A DNA stretch of 64,000 bases from Botryllus schlosseri (Eukaryota). The stretch's first letter is position 1, and each line of letters starts with the position of its first letter. The DNA is taken from positions 2,172,001 through 2,236,000 of the forward strand of contig CM119372.1 in the NCBI GenBank assembly GCA_051294905.1, read 5' to 3'. The notes under the pieces were generated by a model that was not told the DNA's origin, ran no database searches, and saw nothing but the letters and a program-made list of their open reading frames with translations. A program made the translations under genes and the position numbers. This document shows positions 39,650-57,478 of the stretch, piece by piece.

Positions 39650-39849
39650 AGTAGTATTATACACGGGGTTTATACGCGCCCCAATCAGCGTCGAGTATTT
39701 GATCACGTGACATCTGTTAGCCAATCAGAACACAGAACAATGTGGGTGTGGTTCCAATACGAGAGAGGTTTTGGTTGTGTGAGAGATAGCATAGTTCCAG
39801 TCCAGTAACGCTGAGATATTTATTACGTCATTGCGTAAGTTGATTACCT
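39650..39849 (+). repeat. Left terminal inverted repeat of Polinton
   Basis: Reverse complement of 57279-57478 with one mismatch (39789/57339); imperfect similarity continues ~50 bp further. Confidence 0.95.
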
Positions 39850-39922
39850 ATGATTGCGTATTGCACCATTACCTATGATTACGTCGCAAGCGTAGTTGAT
39901 GCTCACTGTTATCTTCAAAACC

Positions 39923-40417
39923 ATGGAATTATTGCGAGTATCACCTACGCTCACTGAAGAAAAGGATGAAATTATATCCACGGCACATTCCTTAGCTAGA
40001 AATTTTATCATGTACGAAATCGACGGCTCAAGCGTTAAAGCAAATACACAGGTGGAGAAAACCTTACGACGAGTTGTTAATGAAATATTTGAGCGATATC
40101 GAACTATCCTAAACGCAGTCTCCAAGCGCCTTCGTTATAGTGAAGTCAATGAGAAATATAAAGAACATTCACCCATTGAGCGAATGTTCCTCATGATAGC
40201 CGATGAAATATTCAAAGATAGTCAAGAGAATTGGGGCCGGATTGTGTCTCTTTATGTGCTTGGCGGCATTCTTGCTCGCAATAACGAGGCTGCGCATAAC
40301 GGCAGGGATATAGATGCTATCATACAAACAGTCGGGAATTACATTGCTACTAGGAAACGAAAGTGGATAGAACAAAATGGCGGATGGAAGCATTTTGTCA
40401 CGTGGTATCACTTATAA
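39923..40417 (+). CDS. Viral Bcl-2-family protein
   Basis: BH1 IFKDSQENWGRIVSLYVLGG and BH2 WIEQNGGW; no C-terminal TM anchor; no introns. Confidence 0.9.
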   Translation: MELLRVSPTLTEEKDEIISTAHSLARNFIMYEIDGSSVKANTQVEKTLRRVVNEIFERYRTILNAVSKRLRYSEVNEKYKEHSPIERMFLMIADEIFKDSQENWGRIVSLYVLGGILARNNEAAHNGRDIDAIIQTVGNYIATRKRKWIEQNGGWKHFVTWYHL

Positions 40418-40454
40418 AAGCTCAATCGCAGTTACTATTTGTTATATTTACATC

Positions 40455-40754
40455 ATGGGCTCCGTGCGAATAAACGATTGTAAGTTTATTGGATCCAAGG
40501 CTGTATCTTGGATAGTATATTCGAAATGTATGAAGATGGTTGGGGTGGATGTAATGGAAATATCGTATCCTTTCGCTATAGTAGAATGTGAAGGATGTAA
40601 TTATACAGAGCTGATAGCATGTGATCAAGACGAAAGAAAAACAATGAAGATATATGATACTGAAGTAACGAAAGAAGAACATCGAGTTGTTTTCAAGTCA
40701 ACGGCTACAGTAGAACTATCTCATAAATTTGCTAACGCTACTGCTCAAAACTAA
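40455..40754 (+). CDS. Hypothetical protein (99 aa from ATG 40455)
   Basis: Co-oriented ORF filling the gap between vBcl-2 and tRNA-Ala; no recognised motif. Confidence 0.5.
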   Translation: MGSVRINDCKFIGSKAVSWIVYSKCMKMVGVDVMEISYPFAIVECEGCNYTELIACDQDERKTMKIYDTEVTKEEHRVVFKSTATVELSHKFANATAQN

Positions 40755-40777
40755 CATTTAAGCCGTCGCTATCGTCT

Positions 40778-40849
40778 GGGGATTTAGCTCAGCGGTAGAG
40801 CAGCTGTCTTGCAAGCAGAAGGTCACGGGTTCAATTCCCGTATTCTCCA
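40778..40849 (+). tRNA. tRNA-Ala(UGC)
   Basis: GGGGATTTAGCTCAGCGGTAGAGC...TTGCAA...GGTTCAATTCCC...TTCTCCA; cloverleaf with G3:U70 Ala identity pair, A/B boxes, TTTTT terminator immediately downstream. Confidence 0.85.
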
Positions 40850-40918
40850 CCCTTTTTACGTTGAAGTGCTATTGACGCAACGGTGGTGCAATCATTTCAA
40901 TTTTGATTGTCACTCAGA

Positions 40919-41380
40919 ATGTGTGCTTTGAAAAGACTGTGTTTCGAGCGAGAAAAGTTTCGGAAATGTTCTGATTCTACTATCAAAGCGGGACCGATTG
41001 ACGAATCGAATCTATTTAGTTGGTGGGCAACAATTCAAGGACCCCAAGGAACACCATACGAAAAAGGAGTGTTTAAAATATCAATAGAATATCTCACAGA
41101 GTATCCGTTTCGAGCCCCGAAGATGAGATTTGAAACTCATATATATCACCCGAACATTAGTGTAAAAGGCACTATATGTGTGGATATTTTGCAGAAGCAA
41201 TGGTCACCAGCGCTAACTACATCAACCGTGCTGCTATCAATATCTTCGTTACTTGGCACACCAAATCCAAACGATCCTATGAATGCGGAAAGTGCACATC
41301 TCTATCTGGAAGATAGACAACTCTACTTTAAACGTGCTCAGCATTATACCGAACGCTATGCCAGAGTCAACTGCGATTAG
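40919..41380 (+). CDS. Ubiquitin-conjugating enzyme E2 (UBE2D/Ubc4-like)
   Basis: GPQGTPYEKG, YPFRAP, HPN motif and catalytic Cys in GTICVDIL, WSPAL, PNPNDP; AATAAA at 41481. Confidence 0.93.
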   Translation: MCALKRLCFEREKFRKCSDSTIKAGPIDESNLFSWWATIQGPQGTPYEKGVFKISIEYLTEYPFRAPKMRFETHIYHPNISVKGTICVDILQKQWSPALTTSTVLLSISSLLGTPNPNDPMNAESAHLYLEDRQLYFKRAQHYTERYARVNCD

Positions 41381-41565
41381 CGGAGTGATCTATCGTGATT
41401 ATCGTGATTACAATGATTAAAACTATCATTTGCTTGCGACTTGTTTATGCCTTGTATTGATTATGGATCGCAACCTTTGTAATAAAAACTCCATAATGTG
41501 TTGGTTATATGATAGTGCGAGTTAGTGATTTATCGGTGCACTGGTCTGAGCTTGACTTGCGTGCT

Positions 41566-55075: not shown

Positions 55076-55152
55076 TTTAAAAAATCAGAGAAGACGCCGA
55101 GGTCTATAAAACCACAGTAGCTAGTGCATAATTTCAGTTCTATTCAAGAGAC

Positions 55153-55539
55153 ATGGAAAAGATCAAGCCGTGCGGAACGCATCAATCAATAAAGAATTCC
55201 GAGGGCGAAATACTATATGAACCTTGTGATTTATTAAATCAACCCGTCTTTCATAAAATGAATTTCGATAGACGCTTGCAATCATTCGAGTCTCATAAAG
55301 AGAATTTCAGAGTTAGTGCATTTGAACTCGCGACTTGTGGGCTATTCCACTTAGGGTTCAATAATCACGCCAAGTGCTACATTTGTGGTCAATTGTTTGA
55401 TAACTTGACAAATTGTACAGATGTCTGGAGCGAGCATGCTAGACTCAATCCTTCCTGTCCTCTGATCATGAAATTAGCAAAGGATTCTAAGTTCTTTCGC
55501 AACGTGCTTATTCGTATACCGCATAGCAGTTTTCGTTGA
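55153..55539 (+). CDS. Single-BIR inhibitor-of-apoptosis-like protein
   Basis: RRLQSF...ELATCGLFH...KCYICG...EHARLNPSCP: CxxC/H/C zinc ligands of the BIR fold; no RING. Confidence 0.85.
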   Translation: MEKIKPCGTHQSIKNSEGEILYEPCDLLNQPVFHKMNFDRRLQSFESHKENFRVSAFELATCGLFHLGFNNHAKCYICGQLFDNLTNCTDVWSEHARLNPSCPLIMKLAKDSKFFRNVLIRIPHSSFR

Positions 55540-55575
55540 ATCTTTAATGTGTGTATTTTTTGTTTAGATCGAATC

Positions 55576-56127
55576 ATGTCTATAGCAATTAGAGCCGAGT
55601 CGCAACTCCCAGAAGGACCTCTTCGGAAAGACATTTACATTTTCAATAACATATCGAAGCTTCGAATCGAAACTGCAGACGATCAGCTGATTGATCCTCG
55701 ACAAGTACGTGTGTTTCCAACGAATGGCGCAATTCAACGATTCAAAGCAAGTTTAACTCACAATGGGAAGCTCGTTGCGTGTTACACTCGAGAAGGTATC
55801 GAATACTTTCAGCAAATCAATCTCGCTGATGAATATATATTATATTCTCCGTCGAACGTCGTCGATGACGTAGAAAATTCACCGCTGGGGTGGATTTTAC
55901 AAGAAACATCGCGTTACATTGCGCCGAATGGTCAAATACAGCCTATGGATCGCGCTAAAGCGGGATTTCCAAATGGTTATGGTAACTTTGCTGGGTATTC
56001 GAATGGTGGGATGCCGAATGCCAATGCAAGTTTCCGGAATGCTGGCAATGCTACTGGAGCCTTTCCAAATAGCAATACGCAATACGGCAATCGCAGATGG
56101 ATGCCAAACAATTCTCAGCAATTTTGA
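55576..56127 (+). CDS. Hypothetical protein with Asn/Gly-rich low-complexity tail
   Basis: 183-aa ORF from ATG 55576; AATAAA at ~56185. Confidence 0.65.
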   Translation: MSIAIRAESQLPEGPLRKDIYIFNNISKLRIETADDQLIDPRQVRVFPTNGAIQRFKASLTHNGKLVACYTREGIEYFQQINLADEYILYSPSNVVDDVENSPLGWILQETSRYIAPNGQIQPMDRAKAGFPNGYGNFAGYSNGGMPNANASFRNAGNATGAFPNSNTQYGNRRWMPNNSQQF

Positions 56128-56472
56128 ATTGTCTCGGAAGCGCGCTCAATGCGATATCAATTGTTTTATTGCTATGTGAGTGGAAATAAAAGCTTCCTGT
56201 GATTATGATTGTTGTGTTCGATGATTTTCATTGCTGATAGACTTATATCAAGATAGCATCAGAGGTAATTTAATTGATCAGCCCTGTAGAGCAGCTTTAT
56301 AAGCAGGTCACTCAAGTTTAGTACTCTCCGTAGAGGTTATTGCACAATCTATCTCTAATATGCTGCAATACAGACAGGTTCAGACGTGTCTATTCACTTC
56401 CGTCGAGTGAGTTTTATAACACATTTTACACAATCACATGAGCAGTTTATTAATAACCAACAAGCACATTTA

Positions 56473-56631
56473 CTAATCGTTCAGAACAAGCCGTAGAGCT
56501 TCTTTGAGATCTTGGCACGCTTTCTTGATATCAGAATCCCTTTTTTGATTTGCGATGTAAAAGCAATAACAGTTTCGCATAGATGAGCATATGATTACGA
56601 ATAAACCGATATTGAAGTCTTCTGAGAGCAT
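56473..56631 (-). CDS. Possible 52-aa small protein
   Basis: MLSEDFNIGLFVIICSSMRNCYCFY...LRLVLND* between the death-domain gene and an AATAAA at ~56450. Confidence 0.3.
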   Translation of the reverse strand: MLSEDFNIGLFVIICSSMRNCYCFYIANQKRDSDIKKACQDLKEALRLVLND

Positions 56632-56657
56632 ATTCACTAGTCCGCGCAATTCTCCTC

Positions 56658-56942
56658 TTAGTACGTTATGTCTTTCAGAGCATTTGAATTGCTATTCGAA
56701 GGTATCTGACAGCTGTGAGCTAATTCTTCAAGTTTGTTCATCGTAGCGTAACGACCATTTTTACGAATCCATAACTGTATCATTTGATATCGTTGCTCAG
56801 TTAAGTTATAGCAATCCATGTATTGACATTCGGCAATTTCATTGTCAGATAGCTCAAGTTTTTCACGTGCAAACCTATACCAGTTCATCAGGTCAATTCG
56901 ATCCATTATGACGTATATATCATTAGCAGTAATCTTTGACAT
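56658..56942 (-). CDS. Stand-alone death-domain protein
   Basis: WYRFAREKLELSDNEIAECQ...LTEQRYQMIQLWIRKNGRYATMNKL matches the death-domain consensus W..LAR.L.LS..EI...EQ.YQML..W....G..AT...L. Confidence 0.82.
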   Translation of the reverse strand: MSKITANDIYVIMDRIDLMNWYRFAREKLELSDNEIAECQYMDCYNLTEQRYQMIQLWIRKNGRYATMNKLEELAHSCQIPSNSNSNALKDITY

Positions 56943-57278
56943 ATTCAATCTGCAGCCTACAGCCTCATGTAATAAATATTACACGTTATATATTACCTTG
57001 CACTTGCTTCAACTGCAAAGGCAATCAACGCAATATTAACGTAATCATATCTCGGTGTTACTAAAGTAATCAACTACACATATGACGTAATCATGAACAT
57101 GCTTCAACTACACAATCATAATGACGTATTTCTCAGTGTTATTGGACTGGAACTAGACGCAATCATGACGTAATATCTCAGCATTACTGGAACTAAGCAA
57201 AGCTGCTCTCGTAATAACTAAAGTAATCAACTACGCATGTGACGTAATCATGGTAATCATGGTGCAATACGCAATTGA

Positions 57279-57478
57279 AGGTAATCAACTTACGCAATGA
57301 CGTAATAAATATCTCAGCGTTACTGGACTGGAACTATGGTATCTCTCACACAACCAAAACCTCTCTCGTATTGGAACCACACCCACATTGTTCTGTGTTC
57401 TGATTGGCTAACAGATGTCACGTGATCAAATACTCGACGCTGATTGGGGCGCGTATAAACCCCGTGTATAATACTACT
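57279..57478 (-). repeat. Right terminal inverted repeat of Polinton
   Basis: Reverse complement of 39650-39849. Confidence 0.95.

Follow-up and report, generated by a model that had tools for sequence, protein, structure and literature searches.

Maverick/Polinton elements are suspected to be viruses of animals, and have rarely been demonstrated to be so. The question is raised anew by a stretch of 64,000 nucleotides from Botryllus schlosseri contig CM119372.1 (here called the window), which contains, at positions 39650-57478, a Maverick/Polinton of 17.8 kb bounded by terminal inverted repeats (TIRs). In its arms, this element carries four genes of cell-death and ubiquitin families, i.e., a Bcl-2 protein, a UBE2D-like ubiquitin-conjugating enzyme (E2), a protein with a single BIR, and a lone death domain (DD). 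Is the element a complete and mobile one, do the four genes belong to it, and what would they do for it? The reading favoured here, on balance and from the sequences of these genes, is that the element keeps its host cell alive during replication by acting at several points.

An inverted-repeat search returned two arms, 39644-39869 and 57259-57484, which are 226 nt long and 98% identical. Reading of the ends and comparison with sibling copies revealed that the outermost 6 nt of both arms are a perfect, palindromic target-site duplication (TSD), TACGTA (left copy at 39644-39649, right copy at 57479-57484). Thus, the element proper spans 39650-57478, and its TIRs are 220 nt in length (39650-39869 and 57259-57478), with 4 mismatches between them. 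The terminus AGTAGTATTATACAC is common to nine copies of the element. In addition to TIRs and a TSD of 5-6 bp, a Maverick/Polinton is recognised by an integrase of the rve type, which is present, and by a major capsid protein (MCP), a packaging ATPase and a cysteine protease, which are present too, the support for the protease being weak (African swine fever virus (ASFV) S273R, E 0.004). The core genes are all on the minus strand, in a single block that runs from 54414 down to 41705 in the order orf411, orf134, PolB, ATPase, orf107, orf153, integrase, orf70, two penton-like genes, orf122, MCP, protease, orf105 and orf96. In the left arm, counted from the TIR towards the core, the plus strand encodes Bcl-2, orf125, tRNA-Ala(UGC), E2 and tRNA-Pro(UGG). 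In the right arm, tRNA-Leu(UAA), BIR and orf183 are likewise plus-strand genes, whereas DD is encoded by the minus strand and is read from the right TIR towards the core. A preliminary description of the window, made from its letters, had proposed a TIR-bounded, intact Polinton at 39650-57478; the TIRs and TSD give exactly these coordinates, and the core genes are open. The best explanation of this region is an integrated Maverick/Polinton of the adintovirus kind, which looks complete and has been mobile very recently, and its gene content is best explained as the genome plan of a linear double-stranded DNA virus, predicted to have a capsid, protease and packaging ATPase together with its own protein-primed polymerase and integrase.

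The genome searched comprises 495.5 Mb in 219 contigs. The search with the MCP scored 99 of 273 candidates, so that all family counts given here are lower bounds: there are at least 99 Maverick capsid genes, which fall into four tiers according to MCP identity with the window copy. Family A (97-100%) has 12 matches, family B (83-87%) has 12 full or near-full matches and 3 fragments, family C (65-76%) has 39 full and 7 partial matches, and family D (33-34%) has 26 matches. Nine family A copies, the window copy included, are flanked by perfect 6-bp TSDs at different sites (TACGTA twice, with different flanks, and GCCTTA, TCGGTT, AATGTT, ACCAGT, GTCGAG, CAAAAC and GGTTTC). On contig 4 there is a copy whose MCP, four cargo proteins and terminal 500 bp at either end are 100% identical to those of the window copy, and whose TSD and flanks are different. 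This must therefore be a very recent transposition and not a segmental duplication. At the ends, identity between the window copy and the remaining family A copies is 90-97%. By the evidence of its ends and its copies, the element is a real, recently active Maverick. One family A copy has an aberrant structure: that on contig 15 (L035/L036; loci fetched from the genome are given by such numbers) has Bcl-2 at both ends, duplicated penton fragments, a broken orf411 and a perfect TSD, GCCTTA, and is a copy that was rearranged before or during insertion.

The four cargo genes are all open, and their products all score above the curated cut-offs of Pfam (31.4 bits for Bcl-2, 27 for UQ_con, 22.9 for BIR and 22.6 for Death). 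The first, vBcl-2 (39899-40417, plus strand, 172 aa), matches PF00452 with 75.6 bits. Its start as conserved in other families is probably Met-9 at 39923, not 39899, according to the alignment, and 39923 is also the start given in the preliminary description. Among solved structures, the protein matches Mcl-1, A1 and Bcl-2 at 4e-11, and its closest relatives among the PDB matches listed are Mcl-1, A1, BCL2L10 and Bcl-2, which we take to be pro-survival members of the family. It keeps the BH1 motif NWGR and the BH2 motif GGW, both of which are invariant in the cross-family alignment. The second, a UBE2D/Ubc4-like E2 (40919-41380, plus strand, 153 aa; PF00179, 161.2 bits), matches Ubc4 and UBE2D1-3 at 8e-45 with residues 3-148 aligned, and keeps the HPN triad and the catalytic Cys of UBE2D-class UBC enzymes. 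The third (55153-55539, plus strand, 128 aa; PF00653, 42.9 bits) consists of a single BIR with the zinc signature C-x2-C-x16-H-x6-C, and matches the BIRs of NAIP and XIAP at 9e-15 to 1e-8. The RING E3 domain of classical IAPs is absent from it (Pfam finds one BIR and no RING), which likens it to the BIR-only protein A224L of ASFV. The fourth (56658-56942, minus strand, 94 aa; PF00531 Death, 42.8 bits) is a lone DD, in which Pfam Death covers residues 8-77 with no second domain. The PDB search relates it to the DDs of TNFR1, RIPK1 and FADD (2e-4 to 8e-3). The four domain assignments of the preliminary description (Bcl-2, UBE2D-like E2, BIR-only protein and death domain) are thus borne out by the Pfam and PDB searches and by the intact motifs.

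If these genes were accidental, they would not be expected in other copies of the element. In family A, Bcl-2 is present in 12/12 copies (twice in one of them), E2 and DD each in 11/12 and BIR in 8/12, and 7 of the 12 copies have all four (three deviant copies were inspected). Thus, the cargo, which the preliminary description had left to be looked for in other copies, recurs in the closest ones, and as sibling copies hold the same genes at the same places, its presence is not due to chance. Families A, B and C share one backbone with variable arms, as established by tblastn synteny and Pfam. In family B, E2, BIR and DD occur together at matching places in 10 of 12 copies, with identities to the window proteins of 63-65% (E2), 53-57% (BIR) and 54-57% (DD), and orf183 is present as well; in L021 (contig 16), the single family B copy that was inspected, Bcl-2 was not seen. 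Family C carries BIR (193 aa) and orf183. In a family C copy on contig 9 (L024/L025), the PolB gene has been deleted for the most part and replaced by Bcl-2, and the capsid genes, integrase, ATPase and BIR have been kept; Bcl-2 lies 5-8 kb from the MCP gene in at least 8 further family C copies. This PolB-deleted subfamily looks like a non-autonomous, packaging-competent lineage that multiplied. In the pieces of family D, none of the four cargo genes was seen.

The selection acting on the cargo was estimated pairwise by the method of Nei and Gojobori, as the ratio of nonsynonymous (dN) to synonymous (dS) change. For Bcl-2, dN/dS is 0.31-0.34 between family A and the family C type, at a dS of about 0.5; for E2 it is 0.09 between families A and B, at a dS of 3.2 that is near saturation; and for DD it is 0.06-0.34 in various comparisons. 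The MCP, as a benchmark, has a dN/dS of 0.05 between families A and B. For BIR and orf183, dN is 0.38-0.56 and dS is saturated, so that the ratio is not computable. Judged by synteny and by these ratios, the cargo is real, conserved across diverged families and under purifying selection. The cargo has also moved between lineages. The dS of Bcl-2 between families A and C (0.5) is far lower than the saturated dS of the MCPs of the same pair, and in a short element the DD is 97-98% identical to the window DD, with Bcl-2 being only 72% identical. Therefore, cassettes have been exchanged between lineages.

From where was the lone DD derived? Its closest relatives in the genome, outside Mavericks, are intronless genes on contig 8. 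Two of these were read, and encode Death and Peptidase_C14 domains in 516 and 554 aa, with the catalytic His and Cys kept in both. The Maverick DD is collinear with the prodomain of the host DD-caspases, from Met-1 to the linker, and is 61% identical over 75 aa (tblastn), or 53-56% over about 93 residues (alignments), to the closer of them (L032:4838-6502). A global search with word-free HMMER against 1.84 billion representatives (E<=1e-3), followed by annotation with Pfam, gave 24 matches. One of these is a near-identical DD of 83 aa, and the next two are N-terminal DDs of caspases, 45% and 40% identical. Altogether, the 23 non-self matches comprise 6 N-terminal DD-caspases, 1 DED-caspase, 4 TNFR-type receptors and 1 FADD-like protein, the rest being mostly proteins with multiple DDs or small DD proteins; the DD-caspase relatives that have a named source are from the ascidian Styela clava (40% identity). 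A word-indexed homology search found one close relative of the DD (94%) and, for Bcl-2, two relatives only, at 30-32% identity. Thus, the domain stands alone, and its nearest relative is the domain by which a host caspase is recruited, as is characteristic of prodomain-only decoys; the best reading is that it would act as a prodomain-only competitor of DD-caspase recruitment. The preliminary description had assigned the DD to the death-receptor arm of apoptosis, and this part of it is not upheld: the nearest relatives are prodomains of DD-caspases, not death receptors, and the arm in question is therefore better described as initiator-caspase recruitment. In Hydra, FADD filaments recruit a DD-caspase, according to the available part of a preprint (bioRxiv 10.1101/2019.12.13.875351), which gives such a decoy a plausible target. 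A sea-cucumber FADD-like query against the Botryllus genome returned only Maverick DDs and one DD-caspase, and no host FADD. A complex predicted for the lone DD and the prodomain of the host DD-caspase scored 0.00, a value that was obtained without controls and gives no verdict. On contig 8, at 2.35-2.40 Mb (L032), at least 5 intronless long ORFs (open reading frames) of 521-569 aa, each with an N-terminal death domain, are clustered.

How might the four proteins act together? The tail-less Bcl-2 would sequester BH3 or Bax-like death agonists. The BIR-only protein would bind caspases or antagonists of IAPs, in the manner of ASFV A224L. The DD-only protein, as a copy of the recruitment prodomain of host DD-caspases, would be a decoy which caps or competes in DD assemblies, such that initiator DD-caspases would be neither recruited nor activated; the logic would parallel that of vFLIP for DED-caspases, and of CARD-only and pyrin-only proteins for inflammasomes. 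The E2 would supply or redirect ubiquitin conjugation, e.g., together with host RING-type IAPs. As for the cassettes, they are modular, and the Maverick families of the genome exchange them. By analogy of gene content, ASFV is the nearest functional parallel. ASFV is a cytoplasmic virus, and is roughly ten times larger than the element. As described in the available sections of a review (PMC9950752), it combines A179L (Bcl-2), A224L (a single BIR without RING), I215L (the E2 UBCv1) and the protease S273R. It thereby shares three of the four cargo families with the Maverick; both have a RING-less protein with a single BIR and an E2 that is a complete UBC enzyme, and the sole PDB match of the Maverick protease is ASFV S273R. 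The two differ in that no DD-only gene is recorded for ASFV in those sections and in that the Maverick Bcl-2 has no membrane anchor. For the DD, the parallel is to be found in vFLIPs (tandem DED), CARD-only proteins and pyrin-only proteins, which likewise consist of a death-fold recruitment domain alone, derived from the host gene that is to be competed with (PMC11874512, in the part available). The domain of the element differs from these in belonging to the DDs proper (Pfam Death) and not to the DED, CARD or PYD types, and its presumed target is a DD-caspase, a class described in Hydra in the preprint cited above.

Several points weigh against the idea that the element keeps its host cell alive. 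The C-terminal transmembrane anchor of Bcl-2 proteins is absent, as the ORF stops 9 residues past GGW. Some viral and cellular members of the family likewise have no C-terminal anchor, so that this limits claims about localisation and not family membership. The BIR presumably does not have the aromatic and acidic residues that form the IAP-binding-motif groove in BIR3 of XIAP. The DD-only protein could nucleate assemblies instead of blocking them. BIR is missing from 4/12 of the close copies and E2 from 1/12, and thus no single gene is indispensable for transposition. Because dS is saturated in many comparisons, several of the dN/dS values are bounds only. None of the four cargo genes is present in either of two distant metagenomic relatives (0/2), from which it follows that the kit is lineage-specific; these relatives, with an MCP 28% identical to that of the window, carry PLA2, TBP and KilA-N, all of which are absent from the window element. 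Finally, it is from the intact capsid genes that the element is predicted to form virions.

The same genes could be read as a means of signalling rather than of survival. The cassette would then rewire innate-immune, NF-kB or ubiquitin signalling, or trigger death, favouring the release of virus or serving as an abortive-infection device; this is unlikely, although it survives better than the other alternatives. For example, and with the same low probability, the DD would nucleate assemblies of DD-caspases or adaptors, and E2 and BIR would build ubiquitin chains for signalling. The neighbours of the DD in the PDB include TNFR1 and RIPK1, which signal to NF-kB too, and the groove residues of the BIR, as we presume from the comparison above, look non-canonical. 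A family B copy has a caspase-domain gene beside E2, BIR and DD, which is hard to call anti-death. In the available sections of the papers concerned, ASFV A224L activates NF-kB besides inhibiting caspase-3 (PMC9950752), and vFLIP of Kaposi's sarcoma-associated herpesvirus activates IKK (PMC11874512); on the other hand, prodomain-only copies of caspases (COPs and vFLIPs) are mostly inhibitors (PMC11874512, same part). The nature of the genes themselves also speaks for survival: the DD is nearest to caspase prodomains and not to adaptors of the MyD88/IRAK type. The closest solved relatives of the Bcl-2, among the matches listed, are ones we presume to be pro-survival. The caspase gene of family B deserves a description of its own: in the one copy examined (L021:3472-4212, minus strand), an extra gene of 246 aa with a Peptidase_C14 domain (2.4e-13) lies between orf96 and orf105. 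It has no BLAST similarity to the host DD-caspases, and the notion that a single captured gene had been split into this gene and the DD was given up.

It is far less likely that the four genes are passengers, i.e., host captures with no role for the element, acquired by a Pack-type-like transduction of neighbouring DNA and now decaying. The genome is indeed full of intronless copies of these families outside Mavericks (such as an E2 array of 24 matches on contig 1 and the DD-caspases on contig 8), and some copies of the element have no BIR or no E2. Decay is nevertheless not what the cargo displays. None of the four ORFs is interrupted, the motifs for catalysis and for zinc binding have been preserved, and dN/dS stays well under 1; the genes also keep their positions between families that have diverged by 13-30% in the MCP and to saturation at synonymous sites. 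More improbable still, by a little, is that it is the host which profits from the element and its cargo-only derivatives and so retains them, be it as a scattered store of regulators (Bcl-2, DD and IAP) or as a defence against viruses. The genome does contain at least 150 Bcl-2 ORFs (at least 69% identical) and 87 DD ORFs (at least 83%), mostly open, and many of these are located in short inverted-pair elements that have neither capsid nor polymerase genes. The window copy, however, is complete and autonomous, its TSD is fresh and it has an identical twin at another place; this is what selfish spread would leave behind, as opposed to a fixed host gene, and orthologous conservation of any one insertion is not in evidence.

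The short elements mentioned were recognised as follows. The Bcl-2 search gave at least 150 matches (the best 150 of 417 candidates), nearly all of them open. Many of the Bcl-2 and DD matches form inverted pairs 3-15 kb apart. In the example on contig 5 (L030/L031, 28128000-28142000), the two long arms are inverted with respect to each other, and both contain a partial Bcl-2, a DD, an ORF of 91 aa and a full Bcl-2; the 5 kb between the arms contains no ORF of at least 85 aa, and no capsid, polymerase or integrase gene was found. Such inverted pairs may be cargo-only derivatives of Mavericks. The 16-nt terminus of family A had no match in the pieces examined of these short elements, of families B-D and of the other fetched loci. 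With respect to Bcl-2 in family C and in short elements (L025, L030), Val follows directly after the GGW of BH2, and the sequence is divergent thereafter. Cellular Bcl-2 genes have a conserved intron right after GGW. In these versions, in contrast to that of the window, a tail exon located downstream may be joined by splicing.

How much of this is new? The preliminary description did not recall such a combination of genes from any Maverick. In part, this has to be qualified: homologs of Bcl2 and IAP have been reported in adintoviruses (Starrett et al. 2021, PMC8502044), and the supplementary maps available place Bcl2 in an element from cavefish and IAP in different ones (the text searched has three occurrences of Bcl2 and two of IAP). 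In part it stands, as neither DD nor E2 was found there or in the other literature searched. The words death, ubiquitin, UBC and caspase are absent from the supplementary text searched, and in the main text "death" occurs once (gasdermin/pyroptosis) and "ubiquitin" twice (OTU and UCH), none of these being a DD or an E2. Adintoviruses and other animal Mavericks have the same plan as the window element, with PolB, rve integrase, FtsK/A32 ATPase, hexon-like MCP, penton, adenain-type protease and genes upstream of PolB (PMC8502044, parts available). The window element differs from them in holding four cell-death and ubiquitin genes together within 17.8 kb, and three tRNA genes in its arms; the same parts of PMC8502044 flag tRNA genes only in MELD viruses, which have other replicases. 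A paper on polintoviruses of stony corals (PMC11131425; its section 8 and a search by terms) lists no such cargo genes. A search of full-text literature on Mavericks, Polintons and adintoviruses with apoptosis or ubiquitin cargo found no description of this combination, a search on Mavericks in tunicates found nothing that joins the two, and no DD-only decoy encoded by a virus was found in the literature searched. Other mobile elements do carry comparable cargo. Nematode Mavericks (Widen et al. 2023, as cited in the part of PMC11131425 available) also have captured host genes, of protease and kinase families, and the Burro giant retroelements of planarians have BIR, BCL2-like, TRAF and ubiquitin-like domains; according to the part of PMC6431247 available, Burro is an LTR retroelement with these domains inside one polyprotein, whereas in the element described here, which has the plan of a DNA virus, each is a gene by itself in one of the arms. 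As far as the searches reach, the features that seem to be unpublished are a DD-only gene derived from a DD-caspase, an E2 and tRNA genes in a Maverick with PolB and integrase, and the trio of E2, BIR and DD conserved across families. The novelty is real, but narrower than had been claimed at first.

The element bears on several wider matters. Core genes that are all open, an identical twin at another site and genes for manipulation of the host are together strong circumstantial evidence of the lifestyle of a virus. A DD-only gene would extend the principle of the prodomain-only decoy to true death domains and DD-caspases, and since the pathway that activates DD-caspases is barely known, a viral decoy could serve to probe it. 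An E2 in an element of 18 kb contradicts the statement, in the available part of a review, that ASFV is the sole virus to encode one (PMC9950752). Bcl-2, DD, BIR and E2 ORFs on mobile elements throughout the genome indicate that transposon-viruses can inflate and shuffle the cell-death gene families of animals. A more elaborate picture, which we hold tentatively and with rather less confidence than the survival role itself, is that of an active 18-kb animal virus with a modular anti-death toolkit (a DD-only copy of the DD-caspase prodomain, which would be a new class of viral decoy and the DD counterpart of vFLIP, an E2 and its own tRNA genes), with cassettes traded between families, cargo-only satellites, and host death genes and Mavericks co-evolving genome-wide.

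The core genes are described here from the left end of the block; all are on the minus strand. Orf96 (41705-41995) and orf105 (42109-42426) are conserved backbone genes in families A and B according to tblastn synteny, and have no Pfam match. The putative cysteine protease (42413-42865), adenain/Ulp1-like, has no Pfam match and a weak match to S273R (E 0.0042), and its gene adjoins that of the MCP in families A-D. The MCP (42862-44139) is of the double jelly-roll type: its nearest Atlas clusters score 0.98 and have some members with PF21738 (DJR-like_dom), and it is 30% identical (E 4.5e-41) to a protein named "Major capsid protein" by UniRef, and 28% identical to the MCP of metagenomic Mavericks. 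Orf122 (44190-44558), which is kept in families A-D, is small and Gly-rich with a very basic tail, and its composition and position suggest a putative core or membrane-active virion protein. The two putative minor capsid (penton-like) proteins, of 249 aa (44536-45285) and 273 aa (45282-46103), are kept in families A-D and are paralogous (BLASTP 29% over 83 aa, E 8e-8). Neither has a family or fold match, and a penton role is suggested by analogy, from the order integrase-penton-hexon in maps of adintoviruses and the position of the pair beside the MCP. Orf70 (46100-46312), small and hydrophobic, is kept in families A-C. The integrase (46260-47267) is of the retroviral type with a C-terminal chromodomain (Pfam rve 51 bits, Chromo 40.2 bits). 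Orf153 (47258-47719; Pro-rich and basic, kept in families A-C) and orf107 (47793-48116; basic and Cys-rich, kept in families A-D) have no Pfam match. The genome-packaging ATPase (48152-48883) is of the A32/FtsK type (Pfam Pox_A32 38.9 bits).

PolB (48777-52643, 1288 aa) has YDFES at Exo I, and DANSLY, KLCGNSAFG and GDTDS at Pol A, B and C, under what we take to be the definitions of these motifs, and matches, by BLASTP at E 1e-12, a metagenomic Maverick PolB that carries Pfam DNA_pol_B_2. Searches of Pfam and PDB gave no direct match for it. Members of the proposed Adintoviridae (Starrett et al. 2021) have an Alpha or Beta PolB with an OTU-like domain at its N terminus and virion genes resembling those of adenoviruses, and they cluster with the reference adintoviruses; for the window element, the missing pfam03175 match fits the divergent "Beta" class of adintoviruses, without demonstrating membership of that class. 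Upstream of PolB are orf134 (52691-53095) and orf411 (53179-54414), both kept in families A-C and both in the position of the "Oncoid" genes of adintoviruses; a motif scan of the two found neither the LxCxE nor the CxxC motif of "Oncoid" proteins, and the AF2 model of orf411, with a pLDDT of 42.9, is unusable. PHROGs returned no match for 8 proteins of the element, and scans of IMG/VR with the MCP sequence and with the MCP alignment found no relative.

The arms contain two further ORFs and three tRNA genes. Orf125 (40377-40754, plus strand; no Pfam match) has a conserved part that begins near Met-27 (40455); its counterparts in three family A copies used for comparison are 87-95% identical, and that in family B is 32% identical (tblastn, E 6e-7). 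Orf183 (55576-56127, plus strand), which in alignments always lies directly after BIR in families A, B and C, has an all-beta domain (residues 1-125) and a disordered tail rich in Gly and Asn. The AF2 model of this domain has a pLDDT of about 70-82 and a best PDB Z score of 5.0 with 59 residues aligned, which is no clear match, and an Atlas search gave no usable one. The tRNA genes, all on the plus strand, were found with both Rfam (RF00005) and ARAGORN: tRNA-Ala(UGC) at 40777-40852 (67.4 bits), tRNA-Pro(UGG) at 41566-41637 (61.1 bits) and tRNA-Leu(UAA) at 54708-54791 (57.9 bits). By the same two methods, they are the only tRNA genes in the window. The E2 gene is bracketed by tRNA-Ala and tRNA-Pro. 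tRNA-Ala occurs at the syntenic site in L036, L037 and L040, and after E2 in family B (L021) too; tRNA-Pro is syntenic in L036 and L037, and tRNA-Leu in L038. Candidate roles for these genes are supply of translation, Pol III or insulator elements, and processing of transcripts. A comparison of Ala, Pro and Leu codon usage between the element genes and two host genes, a sample too small for the purpose, gave no clear fit to the three tRNAs.

A consensus scan found some weak signals of transcription: AATAAA 101 nt 3′ of E2; TTTATT 23 nt past the stop of orf96, which would be a polyadenylation signal for the minus strand; TATAAA at 55105, 48 nt 5′ of the BIR start codon; AATAAA 58 nt 3′ of orf183; and TGACGT five times at 57083-57298, in or just inside the right TIR, upstream of the DD gene. 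Weak as they are, these signals would be compatible with separate transcription units of the eukaryote type. Upstream of the element there are RVT_1 reverse-transcriptase fragments at 34321-34830 (plus strand) and 35874-36260 (minus strand), and the element is therefore placed in repeat-rich DNA.

Genes of the E2 and BIR families also occur in other settings in this genome. On contig 3 (L033, 29434000-29443999), a DDE transposase of the IS1595/Merlin type, an IAP (3 BIRs and a RING, 564 aa) and an E2 (151 aa) are encoded on one strand. This type of unit recurs at about 25 further sites, and 25/26 of such BIR matches have an E2 match 2.5-3.5 kb away; it looks like a second, unrelated family of transposons with IAP and E2 as cargo. 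On contig 1, at about 34.12-34.49 Mb (sampled in L034), 24 E2 matches lie within 370 kb, which are mostly open, intronless, 150-250 aa in length and 48-68% identical to the Maverick E2; this tandem array could be a source or a sink of the Maverick E2. Lastly, in what is a further repeat family, ORFs of about 400 aa with a BIR-like match (29% identity) recur at many sites as head-to-head pairs about 1 kb apart, examples being those on contig 4 (18247800/18248823) and contig 6 (10857519/10858540).

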